Below are positions 2,610 through 64,000 of a stretch of 64,000 nucleotides of DNA, piece after piece. The notes under the pieces are model-generated. The model worked only from the letters and a program-made list of their open reading frames with translations. It was not told the origin of the DNA and ran no database searches. The first letter of the stretch is position 1; each line of letters starts with the position of its first letter. This DNA comes from Myxococcales bacterium. GTDB taxonomy: Bacteria; Myxococcota_A; Polyangia; Fen-1088. The position numbers and the translations under genes are program-made. Location: assembly GCA_043754455.1 (NCBI GenBank), contig JAYUUT010000110.1, positions 10,588 to 74,587 of the forward strand. Direction: 5' to 3'.

Positions 2610-5600
2610 GTGGGTGTAGCCGACAATACCAATCCGCAACCCGCTCCCGATTCGGCAGGCGGCGGTGCCTTATTTTCAGGGTCCGCGCCTTTTGTAGGGC
2701 GGCAGCACGAACTCGATCAGATCGCCGAGGCGTTGCGCGAAGCCTTGACGGGACGGGGTCGCATCTTGCTTCTGTCCGGCGAGCCCGGCATCGGCAAGAC
2801 CCGACTGGCCGACGAGGCAACCGCGGCGGCGGCGCGCGCGGGGGTCACGGTTCTGTGGGGCCGCTGCTGGGAATCGGGCGGCGCGCCCGCCTACTGGCCC
2901 TGGCTGGACGTGCTTTCGAACCTGGCGTGCGGGCTGGACGATTCGACGCTGACCAAGACCCTGGGTGACGGCGCCATGCTGCTGGCCGATCTGCTGCCGG
3001 AACTACGCGACCGCGTGAATCATTCAGGCGCGCTCGTTGGTGCCGCGCCTCCCAATCCTGATGAGGCCCGGTTTCGATTGTGGCGCGCGGTTGCCGCGCT
3101 GGTTCGTTGCGCGACCGCCGATAAAGGCATCCTCGTCGTGATCGACGATCTTCATTCCGCCGATCGCGCGTCCCTGCTGTTGCTGCATTTTCTCGCCCGC
3201 GAACTGCGATCGATGCGCATGCTTGTGATTGCCAGCTACCGCGATGTGGAGGCGCGGATGGACGCCGAGGCCGGCGAACTTTTGTCGCGCATTGCCCGCG
3301 AGGGCATGACATTGTCGCTTTCACGGCTCGGTCCCGAGTCGGTCGGCAGCTTCTTGCGAAAGCGATCTGGCGCAGCCCTGGGCGCAAACCTCGACGCTGT
3401 CGAAAACACCTTGTTCGAAAGAACGCAGGGCAACCCGCTTTTCCTCACCGAAATGGCGCGCCTTCTCGATGACCAAGGCGCGGCCGCCATCGCTGCGGGT
3501 GCCGTGCCCGATGGCGTCCGCGATGTCATACGGCAGCGTCTGCGCAACGTACCCGTGTCGGCGCGCCCCTTGCTTGATCTGGCGGCCGTGGCGGGTGATG
3601 AACCCGACGTGGCGTTGCTGGCCGCAGCGTCGGGTCGTCATACGTCCGACGTCGATCTGACCCTGTCGGAGGCGGTCCGCACCGGCGTGCTGGCGGTCCG
3701 CGCGGGGCGCCGTCGGTTCTCGCACGCGCTGGTGCGTGAGGTTCTGTATCGCGATCTAGATCCTGAGAACCGGCGCGTGTTGCATGGGCAAGTGGCAACC
3801 GCACTTGAACGCCTGCACCAGCACGATCCCGTGCCACCGCTCGCCGAACTTGCCTACCACAGCATCGAGGGCCCCGTCGCGGGCCTGTCGCGCGCGGTTG
3901 ATTTCGCCGAACGTGCCGCCCGACGCGCGCTCGACCTGGTTGCCTACGACGAGGCTGTCGCGATTCTCGAACGTGCCGCCACCGCGCTCGATTCGTTCGG
4001 GCATATGCCTCTGCCCAGAGCGCATGTGCTGCTGGCGCTGGCCGAAGCCCGGATCCGGCGCGGCGAAAGCGCAATCGGAAAAACGCTGTGTCGAGAGGTC
4101 GCTGGAACCGCCCGCAACCTGGGAGACGCCGATCTCCTGGCACGTGCGGCCCTGGCTTACGGAACAGTTTTCACCTTCGCAGTCGTCGATCCGGTCTTGG
4201 TCGACCTGCTGGAGGAAGCCCTGGCGGCCTTACCTTCCGGTGACAGCCTGCGCCGGGCGGCCTTGCTGGCCCGGCTGGGGGCAGCGCTGCAACCGGCCCT
4301 CAAGACCAATGAACCCGTGGTTATCGCGCGCGAAGCCATGGCGATGGCCCGACGCCTGGGCGATCGCCAAACCTTGCTGCAAACCATGTTCACGGGGTTG
4401 TCGGCGATGATGAACGTCAGCGACGCGCGTGAATGCCAGGCGTTGAACCACGAAGTGGAACAGCTTGCGACCGCTTTGGACGATCGCGACCGCCTGATCA
4501 TCACCCATGCGCGGCTCGTGGTCGATCACATGGAACAGGGCGATCTGCCACCTGCGGACGCTCGTATTGCAGCCTTCGAAAAACTGGCCGAAGAACTGCG
4601 CGCCCCGTGGCACGCGTGGCGCGGCCCCCTGATGCGGTCAATGCGGGCGTTGTTCCACGGCCACTTTGCCTTGGCCGAAGAACTAGCCGCAGAGGCCACC
4701 CGCCTTGGGCGCGCCGCAGGTGATCCTCAGGTCGAACGCTGCATGTTGCTGCATCGAGAAAGTTTTCTGCGCGCTGCCGAGCGACACGAAGAGATGCTGG
4801 CGCATGACCCGAACGCCCGCCGCGAACGCAGCCCGCTTGCCAATGCATCCATGTGGCAGGCTATCTGTTCAGCCCTGACGTTCTCGCGCGTCGAGGACCG
4901 GGAAAACACCCGCATGCATCTAGATCTGCTGCCGAATCCAACGCGCACCTTCGACAACGTGTTTGGGCTGTTTTTCTTCGCCGAACCTGCCGCCTTCTGC
5001 GGTTCCCTCGAAGTTGTGCAGATCTGCCATGACCTTCTGTTGCCCGCCGTCCATCGCGACGTGATGTTCGGGATGTCCTGGATGTCCTGGGAAGGGCCCG
5101 TGACACGACTCATGGGGCTACTCAGCGCGCGTCTGCAACGCTGGGACGAGGCGTGCGGTTATTTTGAATCGGCGATTGCGCGCTGCCAAAAATTAGACGC
5201 CCGCCCATATCTTGCGCGCACCCGCTACGAATACGGGCGGGCGCTGATGGACCGCGCCCTTCCCGGTGACGCGAACAAGGCGCGGATCCTGATCGAGGCG
5301 GCTCATGCGCTCGCCGTTGACCTCGGGCAGACTGGACTTGTGCGGCTGGCCAATCTGCGCCTTGCCGGGTTGAACCCAGACACACACAATGCCCTGCTGA
5401 CACCCCCCACGTCCTCCTTCACGATGGTTGACGAGGGCGAGTGCTGGGCTATCACGTATCGCGGTGCCACCTTTCGTCTGAAGGACAGCTTGGGCCTGCG
5501 CTACCTCGCGCGTCTGCTTGCGGCGCCCAACCAAGAATTGCACGTGATGGATCTGGTCGGATCGCGCACAGTTGTCGACGGAAACGCGGTCACCGCCGTG

Positions 5601-6632: not shown

Positions 6633-7574
6633 ATGAAAACTCAGCTCAAAATCAAGATCCTCCCCTTCATCCTCCTGCTCGGCGTCGGCGCGGCCGCGCT
6701 GGGGACCGAACGTTCAGCGGCGGCAGACAGCACAGCGGTAGCCGCTGCCAAGGCCGACATCGGCAAGACGCTGGGCTTCGTGCCAGACTTCTTCTTGAAG
6801 TTCCCGGCGGTGGCGCTACCCGGCACATGGACAGAGATGAAATCGTTGCAGTTGAACCCGAACACGGCACTTGCGCCCCGACTTAAGGAGCTCATCGGTC
6901 TTGCGGTGGCCGCCCAGGTCCCCTGTCACTACTGCATCGTCGCACACACAGAATTCGCCAAGCTCAATGGCGCGTCCGGCGATGAAATTGGTGAAGCGGT
7001 CGCAATGGCGGCCATCACGCGACACTGGAGTACTTTTCTCAATGGCATTCAGACCGACGAGACCAAGTTCCGTGCCGAGATCGACAAGGTCGTCGCCAAC
7101 GTGAAAACAGCCATGGCCCATCCTCCTGCCACCCCGGGACCAGCTATCGCGGTGGTCGATGGCGACAGCGCGGTCAAAGAGATGACCAATCTGCTGGGGG
7201 GTTACGCGCCGGAGTTCTTGCGCACGTTCCCGACTCAGGGCCGTGCCGGGGCCTGGACCGCGATGCGCGACGTGCAACTAAGCCCCGCCACCAAACTCAG
7301 CGGCAAATCCAAGGAACTGATCGGCCTTGCGGTCGCGTCGCAGGTCCCTTGCCAGTTCTGCATCATTGCCCACACGGAATTTGCTAAATTGAACGGTGCC
7401 ACCGACGCCGAGATCAAAGAAGCCATCGGCATGGCCGCCTTGACCCGCGACCTCAGCACCCAGTTGAACGGCATGCAGATCGATATGGCGCAATTCCACC
7501 GCGACGTGGACCGGCTGGTCAAGGGTGCCCGCGCCGCCGCGCAAAAACCGAAGGCGACAGCACAGGCGCGCTGA
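6633..7574 (+). CDS. Secreted protein with two tandem AhpD-like/carboxymuconolactone-decarboxylase (CMD) domains
   Basis: ATG at 6633 followed by the signal peptide 'MKTQLKIKILPFILLLGVGAAALG'. Two internal repeats each carry the 'L(I/A)GLAVA(A/S)QV(P)C(H/Q)(Y/F)CI(V/I)AHTEFAKLNGA' CxxC-H motif typical of AhpD/CMD. It lies downstream of OsmC, suggesting an oxidative-stress pair. Confidence 0.75.
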   Translation: MKTQLKIKILPFILLLGVGAAALGTERSAAADSTAVAAAKADIGKTLGFVPDFFLKFPAVALPGTWTEMKSLQLNPNTALAPRLKELIGLAVAAQVPCHYCIVAHTEFAKLNGASGDEIGEAVAMAAITRHWSTFLNGIQTDETKFRAEIDKVVANVKTAMAHPPATPGPAIAVVDGDSAVKEMTNLLGGYAPEFLRTFPTQGRAGAWTAMRDVQLSPATKLSGKSKELIGLAVASQVPCQFCIIAHTEFAKLNGATDAEIKEAIGMAALTRDLSTQLNGMQIDMAQFHRDVDRLVKGARAAAQKPKATAQAR

Positions 7575-7725
7575 ACCGCCCCGCCCAAACGTCGCACTGT
7601 CTGTCCGCGACGCTAGGAAAAGCCGGTGTGGCCTTGGTCGCCACCCGGCTTTTTTGCGCATTGCTACAATGCGCAGGGACGAGGGTTGCTTATTATTTGG
7701 CCATGTGTCAGTGGTTGTGCGACAA

Positions 7726-10293
7726 ATGCCTACCTCTAAAGTTCTGTCCATGCTGGCCCTTGGGGCCTTTGTTTCCACCTCCTGCCAAGGGCCGCCCGAC
7801 GCGTCCCCTCAGGCGCACCTCAATCTGCTTGCCCCGACAGGCGGCGGTTCATTCGCTACCTCACGGGTCGCCAGCAACTTTGACCGGCCCACACAAATGG
7901 CGGTGGCTCCTGACGGACGCGTGTTCGTCCTGGAACAAGGGGGAACGATCCGCGTGGTCAAAGACGGCTTGGCGTTGCCGACACCATTCGTCACCTTGTC
8001 GAACGTGTTTTCCACGGGAGACTACGGTCTGTTGGGCATCGCTTTTGATCCGAACTTTGGGATTGATCCGAACTTTGCGACCTATAATTACCTGTATGTG
8101 TTTTACGCCGTTGCGGGAACGCCAGGGCATACGCGCATCAGCCGGCTGACGGCGAATGGCGACGTTGTCCAAAGTGGCAGCGAATACCTGATCTTCCAAC
8201 TAGATGACCGTACCCAAGACGCCACGCACATGGGTGGGTCGTTGAACATTGGCGCCGACGGCAGGTTGTACATCTTCACCGGATCGCCCAACGATCACTG
8301 GGAATACTCCCAGGCCCTGACCAGTACGTTCGGCAAGGTGTTGCGCATAAATACCGATCGCAGCATTCCTGACGACAACCCCTACTACACGACGGCCACA
8401 GGAAAATACCGGGCCATCTGGGCCAGGGGGTTGCGCAACCCTTACACAGCCGCTGTTCAACCCGGCACGAACACGATGTACATCAACGACAACGGCCAAG
8501 ACAGCTGGGAAGAAATCAATGCGCTGGCAAGGAACGCCAACTACGGTTGGCCTGACCGCGAAGGCAACACAGGAACGGTTATGCTTGCCGATTATGTTGG
8601 TCCCATCAGCGTCTACGCGCACGGTGACGGCGATGCCTTGGGCAAATCCGCTGTCGGCGCAGCTTTTTACAACCCGACCACGACGCAGTTCCCAGCGTCC
8701 TTTGTGGGCAAATATTTCTTCGCAGATTACGTAAACGGTTGGATCAAATACCTTGACCCCCTCAACCTTGCCGCTGCGCCCGTCCTTTTTTCAGCGACCA
8801 ATTTGACCCTGCACCCTTTGGACATCGACGTCGCTCCCGATGGCAGCCTGTACTACCTTTCGCGCGGCGATTCATCGGCACCATCCACCGGCCTTTACCG
8901 CGTGACCTACAACAGTGGGGACGCGGCCCCTGTTTTCACCCAACAACCGGTCAACGTTACGAAGGCCGTTGGGCAAACGGCCACATTCTGCGCCAGTGCC
9001 ACTGGCACACCGACCCCCACGTACCAATGGACGACGCGCGGCGGTTCAAACATCGTGGCAAACATCGTGGGGGCGACCGCGGCCTGTTACACAACGCCTG
9101 CGTTGGTCATCGGCGACAACAACGCCCAGTTCCAGGTTGTGGCCACGAACACCGTGGCCAGCGTATCTAGTGCGACGGCGACCCTCACCGTGGTGGCCAA
9201 CGGCATTCCGGTCCCCAAAATCGTTTCCCCTGCGGTGGGCGCCAAATACAACGCGGGCCAGACGATTTCTTTCTCTGGAACCGGCGCCGATCCGGAAGAC
9301 GGCACGTTGCCGCCGTCAGCGTTCACCTGGTGGATTGAATTTCGCCACAACACCCATACGCACAGTGCTTTGCCACAAACACCCGGCATCACCAGTGGTT
9401 CAATCGTCCCGTCACAAACGGATGAAAAATCAACCGACGTGTCGTATCTGGTACATCTCCGGGTGACAGATCTTCAGGGGTTTTCGGCAGAAACGATGAC
9501 CGAAGTGCAGCCGAATCTTGTGAACCTGACGCTCGCGACCAATCCCGCAGGAATACCCTTAAACTTAGACGGCAGGTCAGTCGCCACGCCTTATGCATTT
9601 TCCAGCGTGGTTGGCACCAAATGGGATTTCGCTGCGCCCTTAACCGGCACCGTGGGTTCCACGGCATACAATTTTTCGAATTGGTCCGACGGCGGCGCGG
9701 CCACACACACCATCGTCGCCCCCAGCGCCACGACCACCTTCACAGCCAACTACAACCCCTACGCGGAAACGTTCAGCAGCGGGACGGCAGCAGGTTGGAC
9801 CTTGAGCACGAACGCCAGCATCGTCAACCAGGCCTTGGTGTACAACTCGTGGTCCACAACCGAAATGTCCTACTACAGCGGGAGATCGTTCACCCCGCCG
9901 TATACCTACAAGGTCGACATCATCAACAGTGGCACCGGCAGCGACGCGAATACGTCGCGGGTCGCCTTTCACCTGCTTGATGCGAACAACTTCCTATACT
10001 TGCAGATGAGCAACGCAACGTCGCCGGGGACAAAGACGGTGACCTTGAACAAGAGGGTCAACGGCGTCGAGACAAGAATTGCGACCTCTGCTGGAAACTA
10101 TCCAACCGCGGGAAAGACCGTTACGATCACCGTGTCAGCCTTGGCGGGGAACAAGTTCAGTGTCACCGCGACAACCAGCGGCGTTTCAAAGACTCTGTTC
10201 AGCAACGTCAGCATCAGCACCTTCACCTCGGGCAAGATTGGCGTGGGGATGCGGTCGTCGAACACGCAGTTCGACAACATCGACGTGAGATAG
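7726..10293 (+). CDS. Lipoprotein with an N-terminal glucose/sorbosone-dehydrogenase-like (GSDH) beta-propeller, followed by Ig-like and beta-sandwich domains
   Basis: ATG at 7726 in frame with the long ORF. Lipobox 'VSTSCQG'. 'GLLGIAFDPNF', 'RNPY' and 'NDNGQDSWEE' blocks are typical of soluble PQQ-type GSDH beta-propellers. The middle region resembles Ig I-set ('QFQVVATN', 'ATLTV'). The C-terminal ~250 aa is beta-rich and unassigned. Confidence 0.7.
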   Translation: MPTSKVLSMLALGAFVSTSCQGPPDASPQAHLNLLAPTGGGSFATSRVASNFDRPTQMAVAPDGRVFVLEQGGTIRVVKDGLALPTPFVTLSNVFSTGDYGLLGIAFDPNFGIDPNFATYNYLYVFYAVAGTPGHTRISRLTANGDVVQSGSEYLIFQLDDRTQDATHMGGSLNIGADGRLYIFTGSPNDHWEYSQALTSTFGKVLRINTDRSIPDDNPYYTTATGKYRAIWARGLRNPYTAAVQPGTNTMYINDNGQDSWEEINALARNANYGWPDREGNTGTVMLADYVGPISVYAHGDGDALGKSAVGAAFYNPTTTQFPASFVGKYFFADYVNGWIKYLDPLNLAAAPVLFSATNLTLHPLDIDVAPDGSLYYLSRGDSSAPSTGLYRVTYNSGDAAPVFTQQPVNVTKAVGQTATFCASATGTPTPTYQWTTRGGSNIVANIVGATAACYTTPALVIGDNNAQFQVVATNTVASVSSATATLTVVANGIPVPKIVSPAVGAKYNAGQTISFSGTGADPEDGTLPPSAFTWWIEFRHNTHTHSALPQTPGITSGSIVPSQTDEKSTDVSYLVHLRVTDLQGFSAETMTEVQPNLVNLTLATNPAGIPLNLDGRSVATPYAFSSVVGTKWDFAAPLTGTVGSTAYNFSNWSDGGAATHTIVAPSATTTFTANYNPYAETFSSGTAAGWTLSTNASIVNQALVYNSWSTTEMSYYSGRSFTPPYTYKVDIINSGTGSDANTSRVAFHLLDANNFLYLQMSNATSPGTKTVTLNKRVNGVETRIATSAGNYPTAGKTVTITVSALAGNKFSVTATTSGVSKTLFSNVSISTFTSGKIGVGMRSSNTQFDNIDVR

Positions 10294-26955: not shown

Positions 26956-27831
26956 GTGGCACACCCACCATCCCGCAAGCAGGCCCCGGCCCTTAAGCTC
27001 GCGCGTCCGTCGGTCGCCAGGTGGCAGGCCGGGTTCGCGATGGCCGACGCCCGCGTCAAGGCCGAGTTGCGTGCCCGCGGCCCTGATCCGCTGCGATCGG
27101 TGGCGATCGCCCTGAGCATGATCGGTGCGGTTCGCGCGCGTCCCGGCCCCCACTACGACGATCCCGTACGCCGCCGGGGCGTCGAGCAGGTGCGGGCGAT
27201 CTGGCAACGTCTTCGGGAGGCTACCTTCGCAAGTGAAGCCCGTCGCCCCACCGAACTGGAGCGAGTTCCCCCTCCGCTGTGGCGGCGATCGAGCGTGCTC
27301 TCAAGAAGGTAGATGCCCCTTCCGCAGTCATAGGCGGGTTGGCGGTGATCGCCCGTGGTGTGCCCCGCTTCACCGAGGATATCGACGCGACCGTCGTGGC
27401 GGCTAACCTGGATCTTCCGGGTATGCTAGCGGCGCTCCGGCGCGAGAAGATCGTGCCCAGGATTGGGGATTGGAAGGATCTGGTCGAACGCGCGCAGATC
27501 CTGCTGCTGGTCCATCGTCCCACAGGCCATCGACGTGAGCCTGGCGTGGCTGCCCTCCGAGGAAGAGGCCGTACGGGCGGCCGAGCTCATAGCGAACCGC
27601 CCGCAGAATCTCTGGGATGTCGAGCGGCTCCTGCTCCTTTGGCGTGAGCGAATGGACCTGAGTCGCGTGCGTCGCGTGCTGGCCGAACTGGCCGAGCACA
27701 TCGAGGGCCCCGACAGACTGCAGACGCTCGCGGACCTGCTCGAATCGATGCCATCGCCGCGTGCTGCCCGTGCCGCGCCACGGGCAGCGGCGAGGAAACC
27801 AAAGGGAAGACCACGCCGAGGCCAACGGTAG
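26956..27831 (+). pseudogene. Frameshifted MNT-like (minimal nucleotidyltransferase) gene
   Basis: Three overlapping + strand ORFs in frames shifting +1 at ~27280-27300 and ~27500-27530 read through as one protein. It contains 'IGGLAVIARGVPRFTEDIDATVV', i.e. the hGS-x9-13-D-x-D nucleotidyltransferase motif. It sits inside the segment bounded by the 42-bp direct repeats. Confidence 0.45.
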
Positions 27832-27977
27832 CGGGTACCCCCCTTGTCCAAGAAAATACCGGCGGCCATGGGGCTGCCCGCGTTTGGCCCGAAGGCCGCG
27901 TGCCAAGTGGGCGTCCCGGGGCCTCTAAAACCTGTGCCGAAAACGCAGCCGCGAGGGGTGATTTGCCCCATCCCACT

Positions 27978-44602: not shown

Positions 44603-46519
44603 TCAATGGGCAATGTCTTTGAGGGAAACTTGGGTGCAACTTTCAACGTGCTTTCGGTGACTTGCGTTCAGCGCGAAAGCTTCCATCACCAAGGCATTTA
44701 TTTCCCGGTATGCCGAAACCCCAGATGGGGGGTCACGCAAGATGATGTCCACCAGCCGAGAGAGTTCTTGGTCAGTCGTATTTGAGATTCGGGGGAAGGG
44801 CATTTTTTCAACATCGCCCTTCAACACCTTGATCGCTTGGAATCGCCTCGCAAAAACAAATTGAAAAAGCTGGGAATTTAGGAACGCCAGCACGCTTTTT
44901 ATGGAATAGCCCTCCAGATTCGGGATCAGCACATTCGCGCTGTTTAGGACGAGCGTCTGCTTGTCGTCATACGCGAAGATCAGTTCATCCGAAATGAAGC
45001 GATACACCAACTTTTCCGCAGCCCGGTATTTCCAAGTTGGAGCCACTTGCTGGAAGGCTTCGGGTTGGAACCTAATGTATTTGGCGGGTTTGTCCGCAAC
45101 AAATCGACACAAGTCCTTTCCGAGCCAAAGAGGCTCCGTCTCATCATCAGGACTATCGAGAACAAAGCGCGAATTGTTTCCAGTTACGATACCAAGAGCC
45201 CACTCTGCGTTCCCGCGGAGCGTTAAGTGCTCCGAAGAAAACACAGCATCGATCACTTCTCGCTCCTCATGACTCGAACGAATATCGAAAATGTAATCCT
45301 CGCCTTTAAGGACACTCTCTTGAAGAACACTGACTTCGGAAACGCCATGACGGGCGATGAAAGTTGTGCTCTGCGAATGGCGGGACTTGAAAGCATCAAC
45401 TCTCACGACCTTGGAAAAGACGTTTTGAAATACTCGGCCCAAGTTACTTACTGAATCGAGTGTTGCGTTCTCGAGCAAAACCCGTCGGAGATTGCGGTGA
45501 GTCTTGATGTTCAAGAAGGCTTCGGGCAGTAGGATGGACAGGCCCCCCCCATTTTTAAGCAGTCTCAGACCAGCCAAAACGAAGAAGGAAAACGAATCGG
45601 AGACGTCAGCATGGAAGCGAGTCCTGAGAGACACCAATTCCTGCGTCGACAAATGACCGCCCCACGGAGGGTTTGTGGCGACCACGTCGAACCGACCGCC
45701 TGCGTCTAATAGTCCGTTTTCATGGTGGATGTTCGGCGTAAACTCGTGATGCGGGTAGCTCAGAAGGAGATTTATCCGCGCAATTCGAACCGCAATCTCG
45801 TCAATATCATACCCCCATACCGCCCTAGGTTCTGTGATGATGCGCGATGCTTTAACTAGGAAAATCCCGGTACCGCAGCATGGGTCTATAAACATTGAGT
45901 CTGGCCGTGTGTGCAGTCGAACCATCGATTCGGCAATCGAGGCTGGTGTGTAATACGAACCAAAGCTCGATTTTGTGCCTTCAGCCAAAAGTGATTGATA
46001 GAGCAATCCCAGAAAATCCGGGTGCGTTTCGGAAATAATCAGCTGGGGCAGAGAATGGAGTGCTGCTGGCTCGTCTCTCCACCAGTCCAGTTCGGCTTCG
46101 ATACTGGGCCGGGGATCCTTTCCTGCGAACATCTGGATCACTACCAGCTTTAGAAACGTCTTAAGACTGGCACCAGAAGCACGGAAATAATGAACGCATC
46201 GTTCGATCTCTTGGATGAGTGGCTTGGAAGCGAGATACTCCTGGGGTACGAAGGTTTCGCAACTCGCCCTTTTGTTTGCGCGCGTTCGGAGCCGGCCACT
46301 CCCGCCACTGCTAATTGAGTCTTTTAGACTGTTAAGCTGCTGCGTGTGAAAGACCATATCGCCGCTTTGGGTGGGCTGAACCGTCAGAACTCCACTTTTG
46401 ACCCAGTTTCTCGCCGTAGCCGTTGAGATTCCAAGGCGTTCGCTCGCGGTCTTAAGGTCGAGCAGTTCGTCCTGAGAGTCTAAAAATGGCAGAGATGTTT
46501 GAATGGTCTGCTTCATCAT
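44603..46519 (-). CDS. Gamma-class N6-adenine DNA methyltransferase (Eco57I/TaqI-like) with an N-terminal HTH_17-type domain and a C-terminal target-recognition domain; no cognate endonuclease nearby
   Basis: HTH 'LKTASERLGISTATARNWVKSGVL'. Motif I 'FIDPCCGTGIFL'. Motif IV 'NPPWGG'. 'GSYYTP' and 'GYDID' blocks are typical of the Eco57I-like N6 MTase family. Local base composition is visibly lower GC than the flanking genes. Confidence 0.8.
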   Translation of the reverse strand: MMKQTIQTSLPFLDSQDELLDLKTASERLGISTATARNWVKSGVLTVQPTQSGDMVFHTQQLNSLKDSISSGGSGRLRTRANKRASCETFVPQEYLASKPLIQEIERCVHYFRASGASLKTFLKLVVIQMFAGKDPRPSIEAELDWWRDEPAALHSLPQLIISETHPDFLGLLYQSLLAEGTKSSFGSYYTPASIAESMVRLHTRPDSMFIDPCCGTGIFLVKASRIITEPRAVWGYDIDEIAVRIARINLLLSYPHHEFTPNIHHENGLLDAGGRFDVVATNPPWGGHLSTQELVSLRTRFHADVSDSFSFFVLAGLRLLKNGGGLSILLPEAFLNIKTHRNLRRVLLENATLDSVSNLGRVFQNVFSKVVRVDAFKSRHSQSTTFIARHGVSEVSVLQESVLKGEDYIFDIRSSHEEREVIDAVFSSEHLTLRGNAEWALGIVTGNNSRFVLDSPDDETEPLWLGKDLCRFVADKPAKYIRFQPEAFQQVAPTWKYRAAEKLVYRFISDELIFAYDDKQTLVLNSANVLIPNLEGYSIKSVLAFLNSQLFQFVFARRFQAIKVLKGDVEKMPFPRISNTTDQELSRLVDIILRDPPSGVSAYREINALVMEAFALNASHRKHVESCTQVSLKDIAH

Positions 46520-55501: not shown

Positions 55502-55553
55502 CCAGGGGCCCGTGCAAAAGACCGTGGTATGAACCCGCCCCCGAGGTTTAACC

Positions 55554-57011
55554 ATGTCTGTCCGTGTTCGCATCGCACCGTCTCCAACCGGCGATCCCCA
55601 CGTCGGCACCGCGTATATCGCCCTGTTCAATTATGCGTTCGCCAAGAAACACGGCGGCCAGTTCCTTTTGCGTATCGAAGACACCGATCGCACACGATCG
55701 ACGCCGGAATCTGAAGCCGCGATCCTAAGCGCGCTGCGCTGGGTGGGCCTGAAATGGGACGAAGGCCCGGACATTGGCGGTCCGTGCGGACCCTATCGGC
55801 AATCGGAACGGGCTGATATCTACAAGGCCGAAGTGGGCAAACTTGTGGAATCAGGCGCGGCCTATCGATGTTTTTGTACCGCTGACCGCCTAGACGCCCT
55901 GCGCGCCGATCAGCGTCGTCAGGGTTTGTTCGTCGGATACGACGGGTTGTGCCGAACCTGTTCGCGCGAAGAATCCGATCAACGTGCCGCCACAGAGCCC
56001 TTCGTCATCCGCATGGCCATGCCCCGCACCGGCACCACGGTCATCACCGACAAACTGCGCGGCGACGTCACGTTCGAGAACACCCAGATCGACGATCAGG
56101 TCCTGATCAAGACGGACGGCTTCCCCACATATCATCTAGCCAACGTGGTCGATGATCACCTGATGGGCATCACGCACGTCATTCGCGCCGAAGAATGGCT
56201 CACCTCGACGCCCAAACATGTGGTGCTGTACCAGGCCTTTGGATGGCAAGTGCCAGAATTCATCCACATGCCGCTGCTGCGAAATGCGGACAAATCCAAG
56301 ATCTCGAAACGAAAAAATCCGGTGTCACTGGACTACTATCGCGCCTCGGGGTTCCTGCCCGAAGCGTTGGTGAATTACCTGGGCACCATGGGATGGAGCA
56401 TTTCTGGCGACCGCGAAAAATTCGATCTGGCCGAAATGATCGAAAAATTCACATGGGATCGCGTCAGCCTGGGTGGCCCGGTATTCGATCTGGTGAAACT
56501 GTCGGCCATGAACGCCGATTATCTGCGTGCCTTGCCCGATGCGGCAGTCGTCGAACGCCTGCGCACCTGGCGTTTTTCCGATGATTTTCTGAAGTCCCTG
56601 GTGCCCCTTGTCCGCGAACGGATTCAGCGCCTCGATGAATTTGTTCCCATGACCGAATTTTTCTTTGCGGGCGACGTTGATCACGCAGCCGTTGCCAAAG
56701 ATCTGCTGCCCAAAGGCCGCACCCCCAAAGAAACCGCTGACATTCTGGAAAAACTGATTGAAACGCTGGACAGTCACCGGGACTGGACCGCCGCGGGGTT
56801 GGAAGCCGGTTTTCGTGGGTTCTGCGAGAAAACCGGGTATTCGACCAAAGAAGTCTTCATGCTGACCCGCCTAGGTGCCACCGCACGCAAGGCCACCCCG
56901 CCCCTGTTCGAAACCGTTTCCGTGCTTGGCAAGGATCTGGTGCGTCGGCGCCTACGCCTTGCGATGGAGTTCGTGAAAAAACTGCCCGAGCCGCCAAAGC
57001 CCGGCGCGTAG
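55554..57011 (+). CDS. gltX: Glutamate--tRNA ligase
   Basis: '[16 protein letters not shown]' (HIGH motif), 'KISKRK' (KMSKS variant) and the anticodon-binding C-terminus. Confidence 0.95.
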
Positions 57012-57269
57012 TCAGATCACAGGCACCTGCGCACCATAGCCGCACTGCTGGTTGGGGCACCACGATGAGGGGAACCACCGCAGCATCACGGGCGACCAAG
57101 GAGGACTAGGTACACGGGTACGTCCGCGAGATCCATGACCCGGCGTGCTCGCTGCCTTTCACCCCTGCGTCTCGGCCAGGCTGGTCGGCTACAAACGCCG
57201 TCGACCCAAGGAAACGTTGTTGTACCGGACGGTCCAGCAGCACTTCGGACCGTTCGAGGCCGCGGTGCC
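56996..57269. repeat. Repeat copy A: a degraded remnant of a gene 3' end (minus strand) plus a shared ~150-nt leader, immediately after the gltX stop
   Basis: It shares 'gcgcaccatagcc', 'ctgctggttgggg', 'cacgatgaggggaaccacc.cagcatc.cgggcgaccaaggagga' and a ~150-nt block ('ggtacacgggtacgtccgcga ... cacttcggac.gttcgaggccg.ggtgc') with copy B at 61009-61535. Internal deletions are present relative to B and C. Confidence 0.75.
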
Positions 57270-57476
57270 CACGACGTGGGCGGCGCGAATTTTACGCAAG
57301 ACATAGGCATTATCGGTCTTGGCGCAACCGGACAAAACTGTTCGAATTACCTATGCTCTGGCCCGGCATCTCAGCTGCCACCCCGATATCTGTACCTCGA
57401 ACCCCAACGCAAACCCTTCCCACCGCGGCGTCGGACGTGGAATATTCCGACGGCGGCTCGTTGCGAAGGGGCACCC

Positions 57477-60400
57477 ATGGACGGAAAGAACATCGTGGTC
57501 GTCGTAGTGGTGGGACTGGCGGCCATGGGGGCCAAAACGACTTGGCATCACGCCACGGCAACAGCCGCAAGCTCACCAACCGTGGCGCCGTTGGACCCTC
57601 CACCTGCCTCAGCCCTGACCAAGCCCTCTTCCGAGGCGGGTTCGTCGGCCACCCTTGACCCAGGTGGGTCTGCGGCTGCTGCGACCGGCAAGGGTTATAG
57701 GTGCGCGGAGAGCCTGGAGTGTCAGCTCGAAGCATCCTTCCCCGGCGCCTTTGCGAAGCCCTCGGAATCCTCAACGATCCGGCCCGATCGGCTGAAATAT
57801 CCCTTGAACGTGGTTCTCGTGACCTTGCCGAATCCCGCATCATCAGGTTTCCCAGCGGAATTCGATCGTGGCGTGGAGGCTATCCTCCGCGCGGCGCAAA
57901 GCCAACGTTATGTCGTTCACCAGCGTTTCTTCCCCTGGGATGCGGCGGTGACACCGGAATCTGCGGCAAAATCAGGCTGGTTGCTCATGCGCCGCGATGG
58001 CAAGACAGTAGATGTAGAGCTTCTGCTGTTTTTAATTGTAGGCGAGCACCTAGGCAGCGGCGTTGATGAGGCGGCCCTTAACCATGCGCTCGATAGCTTC
58101 AAACAGATCGTCCAGCGCGGACACAGCGCCCCCGCTGTTCGACCCCTGTTGCTGCTCGGCCCGTACTTCTCGGGCACCGCCGTCTCTTTAAAGGAACAGC
58201 TGCGATCGTGGTGCCTGGAATCGCAGTTCTGCGCGTCGCGCGACCTCTTCTCAGTCTCCGGAAGCGCCACGCGGCGTCAGACCCAAGGCATACTTGCAGA
58301 CTTGGCGGAATCGTTTAAGACCAGCACGTTTCATGCGACGGTTCTACCGGACGATCTCCTGGTGGCCGGCATGCACCGCTTTTTAAGCGAACGACTGGAC
58401 GTTCCTGACAGCAAAGTAGCTGAGCTCACTGAAGCCAGCACTGACTACGGCAACGCCGTGGCCTCTTCGGAAGTCGTACCCAGAGGCGCGCGTGCGTTTA
58501 ACAAGGGAATCAAGATCCCGTTTCCCTTTCACATAGGCGTGCTTAGAGGCAACGGTGAAAAAGGAAGCCGCGCACCCGTCAATCCCGATTTTCCGAAACC
58601 TTTCGACTCTCTGGCGGCGGCCAAGACACGCCTGCTCTTGGAAAACACATTTTCCGCACTGTCTCGTCACGGCGTCCGTCACGTGGGCGTTCTGGCAACG
58701 TCCACCCAAGATAAGATTTTTCTGGTCACGGAGCTGCGTCGATCCGCCCCGGATCTCCGAATTCATTTGTACGAAAGCAGCGTTGACCTTGCCGACCGCG
58801 ATCTGCGTGAGGCCCTCGAAGGCACAGTCGTGGCATCGTCCTACCCTTTATTCCCCTCAACACAATTGTGGGCCGACGATTCCGGCGGCGCCCTTCAACA
58901 GTTCCCCACCGATGGTGCCGAGGGCGTGTTCAACGCCACGCTCGTTTTGATTGCAAGGTTTGACACCACCTTGGCCCCAACCCTCACGACACGGATGCTC
59001 GACTATGTGTCGCCCTTTTGTCCGGCGCCTGTTTTGGGACCATCGGCCTGGATCAGTGTCGTCATTGCGGGGCGGCTTTGGCCGCTTGCTGTCTATCCCT
59101 CCAGTCTTAGTCCGAAGCTGCAAAACCCGCCTTGCACAACCACCACGCCCGATCCCTACGTTTTTGCGGATCTCTCCAACTCCGGCGGCCTCCGCGTGCC
59201 CCGCCCGCGTATCCAGTCGGGCTTCATGGCTTTGCTGGGGTTGCTTGCGGTATTTCTGTTGTCCCTGGGCAACCTAGCAGCTCTGATCGCCCGATTCTCC
59301 TGGATGCGCGGTGCCTTCTTCTTTGTCACCTACCGCATGCAGCCCTCGCTGCAAAAGAGCCAGCCAATGTCGCATTTCGCCCTGGATGCGAAGGAACCGC
59401 AGCACCGCGTGGCCTTGCTGGGACTGTGGTCACTGGCAATCACGGCGGTGGTCATGGCGAAGATTTTTGGCTTGCCTCATCAGCTTGTGGGAATCGAGGT
59501 ATTGGACCCAGGTCCTCTGCAGCAAGCGGCAGATATTCTGAACTGTCTGGTTCTTGCCGTGGCCGTTGCAATGGTTGTCGCGGGCCTGCTGGCCACTGCC
59601 GCAGGTTTGTGGGGACGATCCCCGTGGCAATCCAGCACAGGGGCCCTCTGGCGCAGCGGATCGGTGTGGACTCAGCTGATTCTTTGCCTGTTCATGGTCG
59701 CCGCGATCTTCCTCCTGCCCCCCACACGCATTGTCGAGCAGCCCGACGGCCACGCATACTTCTTCTATTTGCGGTCCATGGATCCGGGCGTCGGACTGAC
59801 GCCGACACTCCCCCTTTTCATGGTGGGGGCAGCGACCTATATGGCATGTCTTTTGCGCCTGCTGGTCATCCGACGCGCCACCGCGTTGAAAGAACAGGCC
59901 CAGCACTGGTCGGCTGATTCTTTCACGCACTGTCGCAAGGCCATGGAGAACTTCGCGGAGGATGCTTCAGGTTCTTTGCTGCAAATTTGTCTGATAGGCG
60001 GGTTCTTGGGCCTTGCCGTCCTGTTTTTCAGTCCGCTTCAGTTGGGCAGTCTTGAGGGCCGTGGATTTGATGCTGGGACCAGCGCCTGCTTTGGCCTGGC
60101 CTTCGCTTTGACATTAGCCGCAGCCTGGCGGGCGTTCTCGCTGTGGCAAAAACTGAGGGACTTCACCCGTGCGCTCGCTCTGCATCCCGCGCAGGCGGCG
60201 CTTAAGCGGCTGCCTATGTCTGTCGCTCAAACTTTTCGTTCGCCGGTGCCGGGTCAAATTGGCCGCCGTCACATCGAGGTTGCCTTACATATGAAACAGC
60301 GACAATTGGGCTTGTCGGCTTTGCCAGCGTTGGCTGACCTTCTCCCGCGTTTGGACCGGCGCTGGTTTCCGTCCGCTGAAGAGACATCCCCAGATAACCC

Positions 60401-60878
60401 ATCTTCATCACCCTTCGGCCCGCCAGCGCCCCAGCGGACCGCGGCCATGCAGCCTCTTAACGACGTTGAGATCCTGGAGGAAGACTTCCTGGCCCTGCGC
60501 ATGGCCGAGGTACTGGGTTTAATGTGCGATTCAACGCGCACGATGGTCTTGATCGCAACGGTGTCGGGTTTGGCAACGTTGCTGGCAACGGCGCTCTATC
60601 CCTTTCAGCCGGCCGCAACGCTGACCGCGGCGGGCTTGGTATCGGTGGGCTTGGTCGTGGCGGTTGCCTTGCGCGTCCTCCTGGGCATTGAACGCGACGA
60701 AGTCCTAAGCGCCATCGCCAAGACAGAAGCAGGTAAGATTACCCCCACCTTGGGCCTAACCACCCGCCTTGCAGGCTACGTCCTTTTGCCTTTGGCGGGG
60801 CTGATTGGAACGCGACTCCAACGGGCTGGCGCCCTGATTGACTTCATCAAGGAGCTGACCAAGACGTTAGAACGATAA
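57477..60878 (+). CDS. Large membrane protein: N-terminal signal-anchor, periplasmic-binding-protein type-I (Venus-flytrap-like) domain, then a 7-TM block, a cytoplasmic loop and 3 further TM helices. No recognisable output domain.
   Basis: Start set at the ATG at 57477 (MDGKNIVVVVVVGLAAMGA...), because upstream codons of the track ORF lie in the repeat leader. Alternating beta-alpha segments ('NVVLVTLPNPASSGF', 'RPLLLLGPYFSGTAV', 'RHVGVLATSTQDKIFLV') resemble PBP-I / ANF-receptor ligand-binding lobes. There are at least 10 hydrophobic helices from 'GFMALLGLLAVFLLSL' onward. Confidence 0.6.
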   Translation: MDGKNIVVVVVVGLAAMGAKTTWHHATATAASSPTVAPLDPPPASALTKPSSEAGSSATLDPGGSAAAATGKGYRCAESLECQLEASFPGAFAKPSESSTIRPDRLKYPLNVVLVTLPNPASSGFPAEFDRGVEAILRAAQSQRYVVHQRFFPWDAAVTPESAAKSGWLLMRRDGKTVDVELLLFLIVGEHLGSGVDEAALNHALDSFKQIVQRGHSAPAVRPLLLLGPYFSGTAVSLKEQLRSWCLESQFCASRDLFSVSGSATRRQTQGILADLAESFKTSTFHATVLPDDLLVAGMHRFLSERLDVPDSKVAELTEASTDYGNAVASSEVVPRGARAFNKGIKIPFPFHIGVLRGNGEKGSRAPVNPDFPKPFDSLAAAKTRLLLENTFSALSRHGVRHVGVLATSTQDKIFLVTELRRSAPDLRIHLYESSVDLADRDLREALEGTVVASSYPLFPSTQLWADDSGGALQQFPTDGAEGVFNATLVLIARFDTTLAPTLTTRMLDYVSPFCPAPVLGPSAWISVVIAGRLWPLAVYPSSLSPKLQNPPCTTTTPDPYVFADLSNSGGLRVPRPRIQSGFMALLGLLAVFLLSLGNLAALIARFSWMRGAFFFVTYRMQPSLQKSQPMSHFALDAKEPQHRVALLGLWSLAITAVVMAKIFGLPHQLVGIEVLDPGPLQQAADILNCLVLAVAVAMVVAGLLATAAGLWGRSPWQSSTGALWRSGSVWTQLILCLFMVAAIFLLPPTRIVEQPDGHAYFFYLRSMDPGVGLTPTLPLFMVGAATYMACLLRLLVIRRATALKEQAQHWSADSFTHCRKAMENFAEDASGSLLQICLIGGFLGLAVLFFSPLQLGSLEGRGFDAGTSACFGLAFALTLAAAWRAFSLWQKLRDFTRALALHPAQAALKRLPMSVAQTFRSPVPGQIGRRHIEVALHMKQRQLGLSALPALADLLPRLDRRWFPSAEETSPDNPSSSPFGPPAPQRTAAMQPLNDVEILEEDFLALRMAEVLGLMCDSTRTMVLIATVSGLATLLATALYPFQPAATLTAAGLVSVGLVVAVALRVLLGIERDEVLSAIAKTEAGKITPTLGLTTRLAGYVLLPLAGLIGTRLQRAGALIDFIKELTKTLER

Positions 60879-61008
60879 GCGCCCAAAGAGAGCCCTCTGA
60901 TGTTGCCGTTAGTTTACCAGCCGCTATCTCCGTCATCCACCTCGCCACATGCCCGTCGGTGGGGGTGAATCCGCGCACGCGGCCTTCCGGGCCGAAGGCG
61001 GGCAGACC

Positions 61009-61535
61009 CATCGCTGCCCGGCGCGTAGTCGGTTCACAGCAACCCGCGCACCATAGCCAGCAGATCTTCGGCAGCGTCGTCGGCCTGCTGGTTGGGGGTC
61101 AGCACCTGAACCGTGTCCTCGACAAGATCCACAAGTGCCACCACCGCAACAACCCCATGAGCTTCCCGCAACGACGCGCGTACGTGCCCCTGCGCGCGCG
61201 TCGAGAAGCCCTGGGGCGCCACGATGAGGGGAACCACCACAGCATCCCGGGCGACCAAGGAGGACCCCATTGAGAAGGCGGTGGAATTTCGGTCCTTAGG
61301 CTTCAGGTACACGGGTACGTCCGCGAACATCGTCGTCACGAAGTGGCCAGGTCGCTGCCGTTGTGCAGATGAAAAGGGCAGCTTGAGTAGCGAAGGAACA
61401 ATGACCCGGGGTGCTCGCTGCCCTTCACCCCTGCTTCTCGGCCACACTGGTCGGCCACGAACGCCGTCGACCCGAGGAAACGTTGTTGTACCGCACGGTC
61501 CAGCAGCACTTCGGACGGTTCGAGGCCGAGGTGCG
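61009..61535. repeat. Repeat copy B: a partially decayed copy of the same gene 3' end (minus-strand ORF ending ...LAMVRGLL*) plus the shared leader, upstream of the GH32 gene
   Basis: It begins with 'gcccggcgcgtag', identical to the last 13 nt of gltX. About 250 nt are near-identical to copy C (63301-63550), then ~280 nt are shared only with copy A. Confidence 0.75.
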
Positions 61536-61743
61536 AGATGCCACCCCCGGTGACGGCCTTCCGTCCTTCATTCGCGCCGCATGAACGAGACCCCGGCGCA
61601 TCTGGTGAACGACGTGCTGCCCCACATGCCCGTGCGCCCGTGGGTGCCGATGATTGCGCCAACCCCCGCAGATCAGTTTTACGGCGTCGCTGTTCGAACG
61701 AGAAGATATTTCACCGCCCCCCCAGGGCGTGCAACAGTCCACC

Positions 61744-63282
61744 ATGGCCGATAACGACGCTGGCTATCACGCTGACCTGCCGACGTGTGGCCGTGCCCTG
61801 CGGCTCACACTTTTTCTGCTGTTCGTGACCCCGGCTTTGGCGATCAGCACACCGGCGCAGGCGGACGCGGGATTTCCCCGGCCGCGTTACCACTTCACGC
61901 CGCCGCAGAACTTCATGAACGATCCCAATGGCCTCGTGTTCTTTCGCGGTAACTGGCACCTCTTCTACCAGCACAACCCGGAAGGCCCGACTTGGGGCCA
62001 CATGAGCTGGGGACACGCACAAAGCCGCGATCTGGTTCATTGGCAGCACCTGCCAATTGCGCTGCGCGAGGAGGCGGGAATCATGATCTTCTCGGGCAGC
62101 GCCGTTGTGGATCAGCACAACACAACTGGCCTCTGCAAGACGAAGGAGCCGTGCCTGATCGCTGTTTACACCGGCCATAGAAACGATCGACAGACCCAGA
62201 ACTTGGCGTTCAGTCAGGACGGCGTCCACTTCGAGAAATTTTCTGGGAACCCAGTGCTGGACATCGGTCAAAAGGACTTCCGTGATCCTAAGGTGTTCTG
62301 GCATGAAAAGAGCAAAAGCTGGATCATGGTGGTGGCGTGGCCCGCTGTTCACCAGATCCGCATCTATCGTTCGCGTGATCTGATTCACTGGGCGCACGCC
62401 AGTGACTTCGGCCCTTCGGGCACGACCCAAGGGATCTGGGAGTGCCCTGATCTGTTTCCCCTTTCCACCAGCAAAGGCGAGCGGTGGGTGATGTTGGTGA
62501 ACCTGAACCCGGGCGGACCAGCGGGGGGATCCGGGGGCCAGTACTTCGTCGGTCGCTTTGACGGCAGCACCTTCGTTGAAGAAACCCCTCGCAAAACGCC
62601 TCGTTGGATTGATTACGGCAAGGACGCGTATGCCACCGTCACGTTCGCGGATGTGCCGGCCCGCGATGGCCGCAGGATCGCGCTGTCCTGGGCCAGTAAC
62701 TGGGAATACACCAATCAGGAGCCGACCGGTGACTTCCGGGGCGCGATGAGCATCCCGAAGGTCTTAAGCCTGCGCTGGGACAAAGGCGACTGGTTCTTGC
62801 ACCAGGCCCCCCCCGCAGAGCTGGCGAAGATCCGGGGCGTACGTACGACGATGCCACCGGGGCGGCTGGACAGAGCGACGGGACTGGCCGGATTTGCGCA
62901 GGCGTCGTTCGAACTACAGGCGAAGATTGAGCCCCGCACGGCCGACACCGTCACCATCGAGCTGCGCGGCCCCGGGACAGAGGTGACCACCATCGGCTAC
63001 GACACCAAAACCGCGTCGCTGTTCGTGGACCGCAGCCAATCGGGCGTCGTGAATTTTCACCCGAAGTTCGCGGGGCGCCACAGTGCGCCGCTGCTGCTCG
63101 ACAGCGGAAACCTGCATCTTCAGATTCTGGTCGACACCACCAGCGTCGAGGTCTTTGCCGCCCAGGGGCGCGTGGTGCTAAGCGATCGGATCTTTCCGGC
63201 CGCGGGATCACGTCAGGTGGTGGTCACCGGCGCCGGCGCCATGGTCCACCGGCTGGAGGCGTGGCCGCTGGCGGCGCCATGA
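61744..63282 (+). CDS. Secreted glycoside hydrolase family 32 (beta-fructofuranosidase / levanase / invertase)
   Basis: Signal peptide 'LRLTLFLLFVTPALAISTPAQA'. 'FMNDPNGL' (catalytic nucleophile Asp), 'FRDPKVF' (RDP) and 'WECPDLF' (EC acid/base). C-terminal beta-sandwich. Confidence 0.9.
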   Translation: MADNDAGYHADLPTCGRALRLTLFLLFVTPALAISTPAQADAGFPRPRYHFTPPQNFMNDPNGLVFFRGNWHLFYQHNPEGPTWGHMSWGHAQSRDLVHWQHLPIALREEAGIMIFSGSAVVDQHNTTGLCKTKEPCLIAVYTGHRNDRQTQNLAFSQDGVHFEKFSGNPVLDIGQKDFRDPKVFWHEKSKSWIMVVAWPAVHQIRIYRSRDLIHWAHASDFGPSGTTQGIWECPDLFPLSTSKGERWVMLVNLNPGGPAGGSGGQYFVGRFDGSTFVEETPRKTPRWIDYGKDAYATVTFADVPARDGRRIALSWASNWEYTNQEPTGDFRGAMSIPKVLSLRWDKGDWFLHQAPPAELAKIRGVRTTMPPGRLDRATGLAGFAQASFELQAKIEPRTADTVTIELRGPGTEVTTIGYDTKTASLFVDRSQSGVVNFHPKFAGRHSAPLLLDSGNLHLQILVDTTSVEVFAAQGRVVLSDRIFPAAGSRQVVVTGAGAMVHRLEAWPLAAP

Positions 63283-63300
63283 CGCTTGGAAGTGGCCGGT

Positions 63301-64000
63301 CTACGGATCTTGTGTGATGGAAAGCAAGCCGCGCACCATAGCCAGTAGGTCATCGGCATCATCACCGGCCTGCTGGTTGGGGGTCAGCACCTGAACCGTG
63401 TCCTCGACAAGATCCACAAGTGCCACCACCGCAACAACCCCATGAGCTTCACGCAACGACGCGCGTATGTGCCCCTGCGCGCGCGTCGAGAAGCCCTGGG
63501 GCGCCACGATGAGGGGAACCACCACAGCATCCCGCGCGACCAAGGAAGACCAGAAGCTGACCGGTTCGTGAGCGCTTGCATCGACCACGGTCTGCGCAAA
63601 CAGCGCGCAGGCGACCGGTTCAAGCGGTCGGCCCAAAACAGATCCTTCGATACTATCGCCCCTCACGGCGTAAACATTAACCGCGCGGCCCGTTACCCCG
63701 TCGGCTTCGCGGTGGGCGACAACAGCCACGGTCGTTGGGCCAAGGGCAATCCCGGAGGTGTCCACATCAAACCCTGCGGCCCCCAGCGCCACAGCCAGGC
63801 GTTCCAAATACGCATCGGCGTCAACCGGCAAGGCCACAGCTTCAGACAGAGCAGGCCCCAGGACGCCCCTGGCACCCCGCAGCCGCCCCAACAACGATAG
63901 GGCCTCGTCCGCACGCTGCAAACGCTGACGGGGATCCGGGGCGGTCATCGATTCCAGCAACCGAATAAGCTGCGGATCGGCGGCAGGCAGGGCCTTTCGG
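63301..64000 (-). CDS. 3' part of a gene of unknown function (intact source of repeats A/B); continues beyond the window end
   Basis: The minus-strand ORF reaches the window edge (...SLVARDAVVVPLIVAPQGFSTRAQGHIRASLREAHGVVAVVALVDLVEDTVQVLTPNQQAGDDADDLLAMVRGLLSITQDP*). Its last ~250 nt are the template of repeats A and B. Confidence 0.55.
   Translation of the reverse strand, partial: RKALPAADPQLIRLLESMTAPDPRQRLQRADEALSLLGRLRGARGVLGPALSEAVALPVDADAYLERLAVALGAAGFDVDTSGIALGPTTVAVVAHREADGVTGRAVNVYAVRGDSIEGSVLGRPLEPVACALFAQTVVDASAHEPVSFWSSLVARDAVVVPLIVAPQGFSTRAQGHIRASLREAHGVVAVVALVDLVEDTVQVLTPNQQAGDDADDLLAMVRGLLSITQDP

Follow-up and report, generated by a model that had tools for sequence, protein, structure and literature searches.

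The stretch of DNA analyzed here, referred to as the window, covers 64,000 nucleotides (nt; 61% GC) of contig JAYUUT010000110.1 from a Myxococcales genome assembly (GCA_043754455.1). It holds a locus in which two unrelated genes lie between gltX, the gene for glutamyl-tRNA synthetase, and a convergent protein kinase gene, here called X. Along the locus the order is gltX, a first copy of the 3′ end of X (copy A), a dead ISCR-like element, a first cargo gene, a second copy of the X 3′ end (copy B), another dead ISCR-like element, a second cargo gene, and then intact X, whose own 3′ end makes up the third copy (copy C). Each insert is a single cargo gene with short flanks. The dead element is called ISx below, and the positions of the features are collected in Table 1.

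Table 1. Features of the gltX–X locus, by position in the window
Feature	Position	Strand	Basis
gltX (glutamyl-tRNA synthetase; protein P0003)	55554–57011	+	translation; 33 relatives by tblastn
Last 13 nt of gltX (gltX13), left end of copy A, duplicated in copy B	56999–57011	+	alignment
Copy A, X tail: gltX13, 5-nt spacer, X stop (57017–57019), X 3′ end with two internal deletions	56999–57106	−	
Copy A, transposon part: 22-nt left (terIS-side) block (57108–57129) and transposase 5′ remnant	57107–57268	+	
Candidate decayed oriIS (right end) of the copy A element, CTGTTCGAATTACCTATGCT	57338–57357	+	position weight matrix rank
Cargo 1, membrane protein, 1133 amino acids (P0005)	57477–60878	+	100% self match
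GC-rich 44-nt motif, 3′ flank of cargo 1, ending 3 nt inside copy B	60975–61018	+	blastn
Copy B, X tail: gltX13 (61016–61028), spacer, X stop (61034–61036), 230 nt of X 3′ end up to junction J	61016–61266	−	
Copy B, transposon part: left (terIS-side) end from 61267 to about 61400 and two transposase 5′ pieces	61267–61646	+	
Cargo 2, secreted GH32 beta-fructofuranosidase/levanase-type enzyme	61654–63282	+	Pfam
Gene X, intact, with copy C (repeated segment 63319–63551); runs off the window	63301–64000	−	translation

The three same-orientation copies are real, with a repeat search (find_repeats) and an all-against-window blastn search agreeing on copy A at 56999–57268, copy B at 61016–61534, and copy C at 63319–63551. 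No fourth copy is found by blastn in the window. Copy B aligns with copy C (61038–61266 with 63323–63551) at 94.8% identity over 229 nt, with an expectation value (E) of 2e-101. Copies A and B share four colinear blocks, 56999–57041 with 61016–61058 (88% identity), 57053–57106 with 61212–61265 (94%), 57108–57129 with 61305–61326 (100%), and 57135–57268 with 61401–61534 (92%), from which it follows that copy A is copy B minus three internal deletions. One of these deletions is bordered by a TGGGG microhomology. An initial annotation of the window had described three same-orientation copies of the X 3′ end, the first two beginning with the last 13 nt of gltX and the one nearest gltX being the most degraded, and pairwise alignment bears out all of this. 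Its description of copies A and B as the 3′ end of X holds for about 250 nt of each; the remainder is the left end of a transposon and the 5′ end of its transposase gene, making the repeat unit a composite.

The borders of the copies differ. The last 13 nt of gltX (GCCCGGCGCGTAG) open both copy A and copy B; after them come a spacer of 5 nt and then the stop codon of X. Copy C has none of these, neither the 13 nt nor the spacer nor the stop codon of A and B, and its divergence begins 1–2 nt ahead of the X stop. The X protein ends in GLLSITQDP in copy C and in GLL or CL in copies A and B, and it is the end of the cargo 2 segment that supplies the last six codons of X (SITQDP, then the stop). 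At the other side of the X tail is a junction, J (between 61266 and 61267 in copy B), where the tail meets a plus-strand transposon module, and this X/transposon joint is identical in copies A and B. A terminator-like hairpin with a T-run, suited to X, was also seen on the minus strand at 56986–57004 within the last codons of gltX; the left boundary of copy B falls inside the hairpin.

A relative provides the state of the site prior to insertion. The GltX cluster at 90% identity has one other member, encoded on a 2,995-nt Logan contig (L034, from reads SRR22198320) whose gltX is 85% identical in nucleotide sequence. On this contig gltX and X converge directly, with 5 nt between them, which is the empty site that the initial annotation had predicted for related genomes. 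Positions 276–1794 of this contig align without a break to window positions 55523–57041, from gltX into copy A, and positions 1774–2451 align without a break to 63322–64000, from copy C past the point of junction J into the rest of X. The L034 version of X ends in LLAMVRAWL, an end of the A/B type. The convergence and the unbroken alignments indicate that the gltX–X arrangement is ancestral and that copy C is uninterrupted. Judged from these sequences, copy A is the original 3′ end of X, displaced from its gene and still in place adjoining gltX.

The product of gene X is a Ser/Thr protein kinase, as shown by a Pkinase domain in the L034 ortholog (E 2e-21), and has an orphan C-terminal domain. 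The C-terminal 232 residues have no match in a database of 5.8 billion proteins, and a search of metagenome contigs (JGI) with X returned 600 pattern matches, none of them real. Relatives of GltX were found at 33 loci, and those at 55–79% amino acid identity are all myxobacterial or unclassified metagenome-assembled genomes (MAGs). The best of them is 79% identical and the close relatives are all MAGs, placing the window among uncultured Polyangia/Myxococcales. Gene X, either cargo gene, and the genes upstream are all absent within 10 kb of these 33 loci, and given this lack of shared synteny, the relatives are too remote to shed light on the site.

The module that follows junction J is the N terminus of an IS91/ISCR-family transposase that has lost its Zn-finger segment. 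In copy B it reads RRRPEETLLYRTVQQHFGRFEAEV..GLPSFIRAA in one frame and SRRMNETPAHLVNDVLPHMPVRPWV after a frameshift. The NCBIfam model ISCR_clade_Ia matches in two stretches with an E of 1.2e-4, far below the full-length cutoff of the model. With the ISVsa3 transposase as a tblastn query, residues 11–48 match 61456–61575 and residues 93–117 match 61572–61646 (56% identity) in copy B, with E of 5e-4 and 2e-3, and residues 11–34 match 57190–57261 in copy A (E 0.01). These three best ISVsa3 matches in the window are colinear and on one strand (+), and in copy B it is the Zn-finger region between the two transposase pieces that is deleted. A profile hidden Markov model (HMM) built from 34 full-length metagenomic relatives finds fragments at E 3e-10 and 3e-8 in copy B and 7e-8 in copy A (fragment 57139–57303); the next best of the 1,800 six-frame fragments of the window has an E of 0.75. 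The initial annotation had seen no transposase in the window, which does not hold, as a remnant of the IS91/ISCR family follows both displaced copies at one identical junction.

Searches outside the window place the fragment in the same family. A degenerate-pattern scan found 332 metagenomic relatives, the best N-terminal match being 50% identical, and the two full-length relatives tested carry Zn_Tnp_IS91 and Y2_Tnp domains. A tblastn search of plasmids with the fragment gave weak matches, and among those listed every annotated one is an IS91/ISVsa3 transposase. Pfam gives no match because the fragment is too short. Neither tblastn nor the HMM finds any remnant in the window beyond about residue 120 of the transposase, and a word-based database search found no close intact protein of the ISx type. 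The homology of the N-terminal part is clear, but with the Zn-finger and Y2 domains deleted, ISx is best described as homologous debris, not an intact member of the IS91/ISCR family.

The debris has left its mark on the annotation. In copy B, the NCBI annotation has two open reading frames (ORFs) of 57 amino acids, P0001 and P0002, with no other cluster members; they span parts of 61405–61751 (+) and are likely artifacts. A spurious 137–amino acid ORF on the minus strand (61034–61447), running from the X tail of copy B into the left end of the transposon, is likely another. Among the metagenomic contigs, the transposase N terminus closest to ISx, RRRRPERTLLYRTVQTHF, is found on L093 (Ga0163153_10012088, GC 0.67), in a gene at 3863–5100 that is frameshifted and truncated. 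A second transposase copy lies at 7383–7639, 3.5 kb downstream at the end of the contig, and this may be another decayed array. L093 was not accepted as a clear second example of the arrangement, having two decayed copies but no duplicated host fragment noted.

Elements of the IS91 family replicate from one end, oriIS, to the other, terIS; they frequently overrun terIS, carrying upstream DNA along, and circular intermediates are known (PMC13181058). In intact relatives of ISx, a conserved motif, G(G)TT(G/T)A..TTCCTAT(C/A)C, is found 160–300 nt after the transposase stop codon and is the oriIS terminus of the family. On a position weight matrix (PWM) built from 16 of these motifs, the sequence CTGTTCGAATTACCTATGCT ranks 3rd of 127,960 window positions. 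This candidate lies 70 nt past the transposase remnant of copy A, on the same strand, and 120 nt ahead of the start codon of cargo 1. Within about 200–400 nt, a score this high would arise by chance with a probability of roughly 0.005–0.01. On the terIS side, the region from junction J to the transposase start is about 130 nt long, which falls within the range of 87–369 bp reported for ISCR terIS regions (PMC13393415). No inverted repeats or short direct repeats bracketing the units were found with find_repeats, as expected of the IS91/ISCR family. The right flanks of the two elements show no similarity past 57268 and 61534 in a MAFFT alignment.

Two other motifs at the boundaries were considered and set aside. 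The 44-nt GC-rich motif has only one other copy in the window, inverted, at 27861–27903 in a convergent intergenic gap and 86% identical. With that single other copy and no conserved hairpin, it was rejected as an alternative origin. A GTTC found 2 nt from the donor position of the left boundary of copy C has no equivalent at the copy B boundary and gives too faint a signal to be used. Immediately before the inverted copy of the 44-nt motif come two overlapping ORFs of 122 amino acids (27279–27831, +), which are in different frames and read like one frameshifted gene; they have no Pfam match.

The differences between the copies tell something about their history. Copies B and C differ at 12 places, 9 of them third positions of X codons (binomial p of about 0.004, with 1/3 expected), a pattern that points to divergence as the ends of a functional gene, either as alleles or with copy B a working end until the second event. 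The differences between copies A and B are spread evenly over codon positions, both in the transposase stub (n = 11; 5, 3, and 3 by position) and at the X-coding positions (n = 6), which is the pattern of neutral decay. Substitution levels are about 7.5% between A and B and 5.2% between B and C. Copies A and B carry different internal deletions, indicating that the elements decayed independently after insertion. The gltX13 of copy B is identical to the resident gltX at 13 of 13 positions and L034 differs at 5 of the 13, so the captured flank would come from this lineage.

Our preferred reading, to which we give a probability of roughly 0.6, is that the two unrelated genes were inserted between gltX and the kinase gene by a now-dead IS91/ISCR-type rolling-circle element that went through capture and rescue twice. 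The agent would probably be an ISCR-like rolling-circle element and not an att/integrase system, the route being read from the geometry of the locus and the literature on the family. In the ancestral state, gltX and X would be convergent and 5 nt apart, as they are in L034. In the same lineage, ISx would have entered X at J, some 250 nt short of the 3′ end of the gene, with the terIS/transposase-5′ side facing the X tail. Copying, which begins at oriIS and proceeds along the transposase gene to terIS, would then overrun terIS, in a one-ended transposition, and take the X tail with it, ending 13 nt into gltX in one event and halting 1–2 nt before the X stop in another. An ISx at J with read-through gives a fixed J and variable distal ends, as in copy B versus copy C. 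Composites of the X tail and ISx would land just downstream of other genes, where a second read-through would add the gene in question, and the product would be circles of cargo, X tail, and ISx, closed from oriIS to cargo.

Each circle would next recombine with the resident gltX–X through its X tail of about 230–250 nt, in a single crossover, to give X tail, ISx (with oriIS), cargo, X tail, and the rest of X. Two rounds of this process would give copy A, cargo 1, copy B, cargo 2, and copy C. With recombination inside the X tail, X is never destroyed and the displaced tail is left behind; the transposase genes would then decay by independent deletions. The stages from the insertion of ISx to the homologous rescue are inferred from geometry and from what is described for the family. 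The product that the model predicts matches the locus, i.e., a tail beside gltX, oriIS abutting cargo, a cargo tail joined to gltX13, and a regenerated X. The oriIS candidate of copy A sits where the model places it, between the transposase remnant and cargo 1. At the native loci of the cargo genes, the model predicts joints of CCCATCGCT with GCCCGGCGCG and of GGAA with AGCAAGCC. A published model likewise has two aberrant rolling-circle events followed by a homologous rescue, and repeating the process gives multicopy arrays (PMC7707992). The broader picture in the initial annotation is sustained: the gltX/X junction is an accretion locus, and the geometry agrees with serial insertion in which X is restored each time and a displaced X tail stays behind.

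Several points weigh against capture and rescue by ISx. Database and metagenome searches turned up neither an intact ISx nor an intermediate state of the locus, nor a donor locus for either cargo. What survives of the transposase is about 25–60 N-terminal codons, with the catalytic HUH/Y2 part gone. The HMM training set was picked by similarity to the fragment, making the N-terminal match partly circular; neither the NCBIfam match nor the HMM match of the second segment depends on that choice. The PWM score of CTGTTCGAATTACCTATGCT is 10.5, as against 19–32 for true oriIS sites, and two sites outscore it, 9981–10000 in the gene for a GSDH/Ig-domain protein and 55922–55941 in gltX. These two lie inside ordinary genes and are taken as chance matches, which gives a gauge of how weak the oriIS evidence is. 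Copy B has no scoring oriIS in the PWM scan and shares only CTGTTCGAA with copy A, and the same scan finds no circle-closing oriIS left of copy B or left of copy C. No significant secondary structure is seen in the terIS region (z 0.18), and the IS91-type target tetranucleotide is not evident at J (no GTTC or CTCG) or beside the oriIS candidate. Finally, the substitution counts are too small to set the order of the two events firmly.

A rival explanation is site-specific recombination, as the initial annotation had supposed in likening the locus to islands that target gene ends. Two small elements could have integrated serially into an att site at the 3′ end of X, each with a replacement X tail, leaving the IS91-like remnant as incidental. 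The geometry would be the same, with a displaced tail by gltX and a gene restored by the newest insert, and the bias toward synonymous differences between copies B and C is also expected of a functional replacement tail. The prophage e14 and phage 21 integrate into the 3′ end of icd, carrying a replacement end, and as at this locus, such prophages and islands restore the gene, leave a displaced partial copy, and show differences that are largely synonymous. They rely on a short common core and on a tyrosine integrase whose gene adjoins attP, and neither is found here. No recombinase is encoded in either single-gene insert, no integrase or transposase Pfam domain is present among the 37 ORFs tested across the window (which ends at 64000), and there is no tRNA gene in the 50–64 kb interval. 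The boundaries have no att core and consist of homology of 230–250 nt with distal ends that vary between events while J is fixed. The sole recombinase-related sequence is the IS91-like remnant, which is found at the recombination junction of both units, and the 13 nt of gltX in copy B are useless for restoring X but typical of read-through capture. Integration at an att site therefore seems quite improbable.

ISx could have acted by another route, with no circle rescued inside the X tail: composites of gltX13, X tail, and ISx might have transposed directly into the locus, or neighboring genes might have been translocated to it by recombination between dispersed copies of ISx. Either route would leave the transposase remnants and junction J that are seen. 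One-ended transposition does carry flanking DNA along in IS91 elements (PMC13181058), and for ISCR28 a "sandwich" has been described in which two oriIS ends enclose the captured DNA (PMC12772301). We nonetheless regard these routes as unlikely, since direct transposition leaves unexplained why X is regenerated in frame up to its last codon each time and recombination between ISx copies alone would not duplicate the X tail. The other alternative from the initial annotation, tandem duplication of a unit of gltX13, X tail, ISx, and cargo followed by replacement of one cargo, would account for two head-to-tail units with the same left boundary elements. It would require an extra and precise replacement event for which no support was found; moreover, the two cargo genes are unrelated, the units are not homologous along their whole length, the left boundary of copy C is unlike that of copy B, and the differences between copies B and C look allelic instead of postduplication. 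This makes tandem duplication very unlikely. An artifact of metagenome assembly, in which repeats from different strains were falsely joined into one contig, might be suspected because the closest relatives are all MAGs, the source may itself be a MAG, and the B–C differences look allelic. The copies differ by 5–8% and by distinct deletions, and the novel joints (the cargo 1 tail with gltX13 and the cargo 2 tail with X) are unique sequence and not repeats, so misassembly has only a minimal chance of being the explanation.

Capture and rescue by ISx has its closest parallel in the complex class 1 integrons of resistance plasmids, where a truncated 3′-conserved segment (3′-CS) is followed by ISCR1, a variable region on the oriIS side, and a partial duplicate of the 3′-CS (PMC6218425, PMC3575428). 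The ISCR1-linked class 1 integrons (In6/In7 type and multicopy ISCR1-qnrB) share with the locus a truncated host segment, then an IS91-like element with a variable single-gene cargo at its oriIS side, and last a partial direct duplicate of that segment. They also resemble it in the transposase 5′ end that is turned toward the host segment, in the variable start of the duplicate, and in units that can be repeated. For both, two read-through events plus homologous rescue offer an explanation (PMC6218425, PMC3575428, PMC7707992). At the gltX–X locus, as in ISCR1-type structures, a direct partial duplication on the terIS side brackets the ISCR-like element and its cargo; the proximal junction (here J) is constant and the distal end varies. 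The X tail would match the part played by the 3′-CS in the ISCR1 model.

The differences are just as clear. Unlike complex class 1 integrons, the locus has no integron, with no intI1, attI, or 3′-CS (qacEdelta1/sul1) in the window ORFs tested. A chromosomal kinase gene, itself kept intact, provides the homology anchor with its 3′ end; the host belongs to the uncultured Polyangia/Myxococcota, and the cargo is not antibiotic resistance. The element comes from a distant IS91-family lineage (best N-terminal match found 50% identical) and is reduced to stubs. The locus would thus work like an ISCR1-type complex structure without being a member of that group. With IS91, IS801, and IS1294, it would share a transposase of the HUH-Y2 family, distinct terIS and oriIS ends, terIS read-through that mobilizes the DNA upstream of the transposase gene, and the lack of target duplications and inverted repeats (PMC13181058). 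It differs from these elements in that no catalytic domain is left, a GTTC/CTTG target and a terIS palindrome are not recognized, and activity is wholly inferred. In the ISCR28/ISCR2 sandwich and in CR2-sul2 units, cargo is likewise bracketed by intact or remnant ISCR copies, the remnants often being truncated (PMC12772301, PMC9376610); those units are defined by two oriIS ends, whereas the brackets at the locus are duplicated host-gene tails and one candidate oriIS is seen.

The assembly of complex resistance loci is attributed to ISCR elements, and the model of how this happens rests almost wholly on class 1 integron contexts. ISCR transposition has never been shown experimentally (PMC6218425). 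Finding the same architecture in a Myxococcota chromosome, with a kinase gene as the anchor, sensor-like and GH32 cargo, and an empty site in a relative, suggests that an ISCR-type mechanism may be general and older than clinical resistance. It could be that the tail of a host gene, once captured, serves IS91/ISCR-type elements as a homology arm that travels with them, with circles homing repeatedly to one gene end while the gene is kept, a proposal that we put forward tentatively and at somewhat under even odds. If true, this would be a general route to gene-accretion arrays beyond integrons and antibiotic resistance, and the locus would be natural, independent support for the never-demonstrated ISCR model of two read-throughs and homologous rescue. 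There is also a lesson for annotation, as the short hypothetical proteins P0001 and P0002 and an over-extended ORF at cargo 1 are transposon debris, and such debris can be used to recognize horizontally inserted single genes.

The two cargo genes share no similarity by find_repeats, blastn, or Pfam. Neither stands out in base composition, which gives no sign of foreign origin, and a scan for promoters and terminators found nothing above chance. Cargo 1 had been taken for a 1247–amino acid Venus-flytrap protein with seven transmembrane helices ("VFT-7TM"). The longer ORF extends back through the transposon debris, and the recorded protein has 1133 residues, starting at 57477. It has no Pfam or NCBIfam match, and its approximately 24 metagenomic homologs are at most 51% identical, none of them with a Pfam domain, so that a family of about 25 proteins, P0005 included, is without a Pfam model. 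The homologs lie in varied, unrelated gene contexts and are not linked to insertion sequences.

An AlphaFold model of cargo 1 (mean predicted local distance difference test score, pLDDT, 75.6) has an N-terminal anchor, an alpha/beta domain, and a helical membrane part. In Foldseek searches, the alpha/beta domain matches the GABA-B receptor (E 3e-7) and the LIV-binding protein 4q6b (TM-score 0.62). The top match of the protein is to a full-length GABA-B receptor, but the global superposition is poor. The model supports a type I periplasmic-binding/Venus-flytrap domain at about residues 110–540. The earlier label is roughly right: its Venus-flytrap part is supported, and hydropathy gives eight C-terminal transmembrane segments in addition to the N-terminal anchor. 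Cargo 1 may be a ligand-gated membrane sensor or transporter. For cargo 2, the earlier assignment to GH32 is confirmed by Pfam (Glyco_hydro_32N, E 3e-94; Glyco_hydro_32C, E 6e-30), and the likely start codon is the ATG at 61741.

Elsewhere in the window, a minus-strand ORF at 44603–46516 has N6_Mtase, Eco57I, and TaqI_C domains, as in a type IIG-like restriction-modification enzyme. Its GC content at third codon positions is 0.56, compared with about 0.67–0.73 in its neighbors, suggesting that it may be a separate horizontal acquisition.

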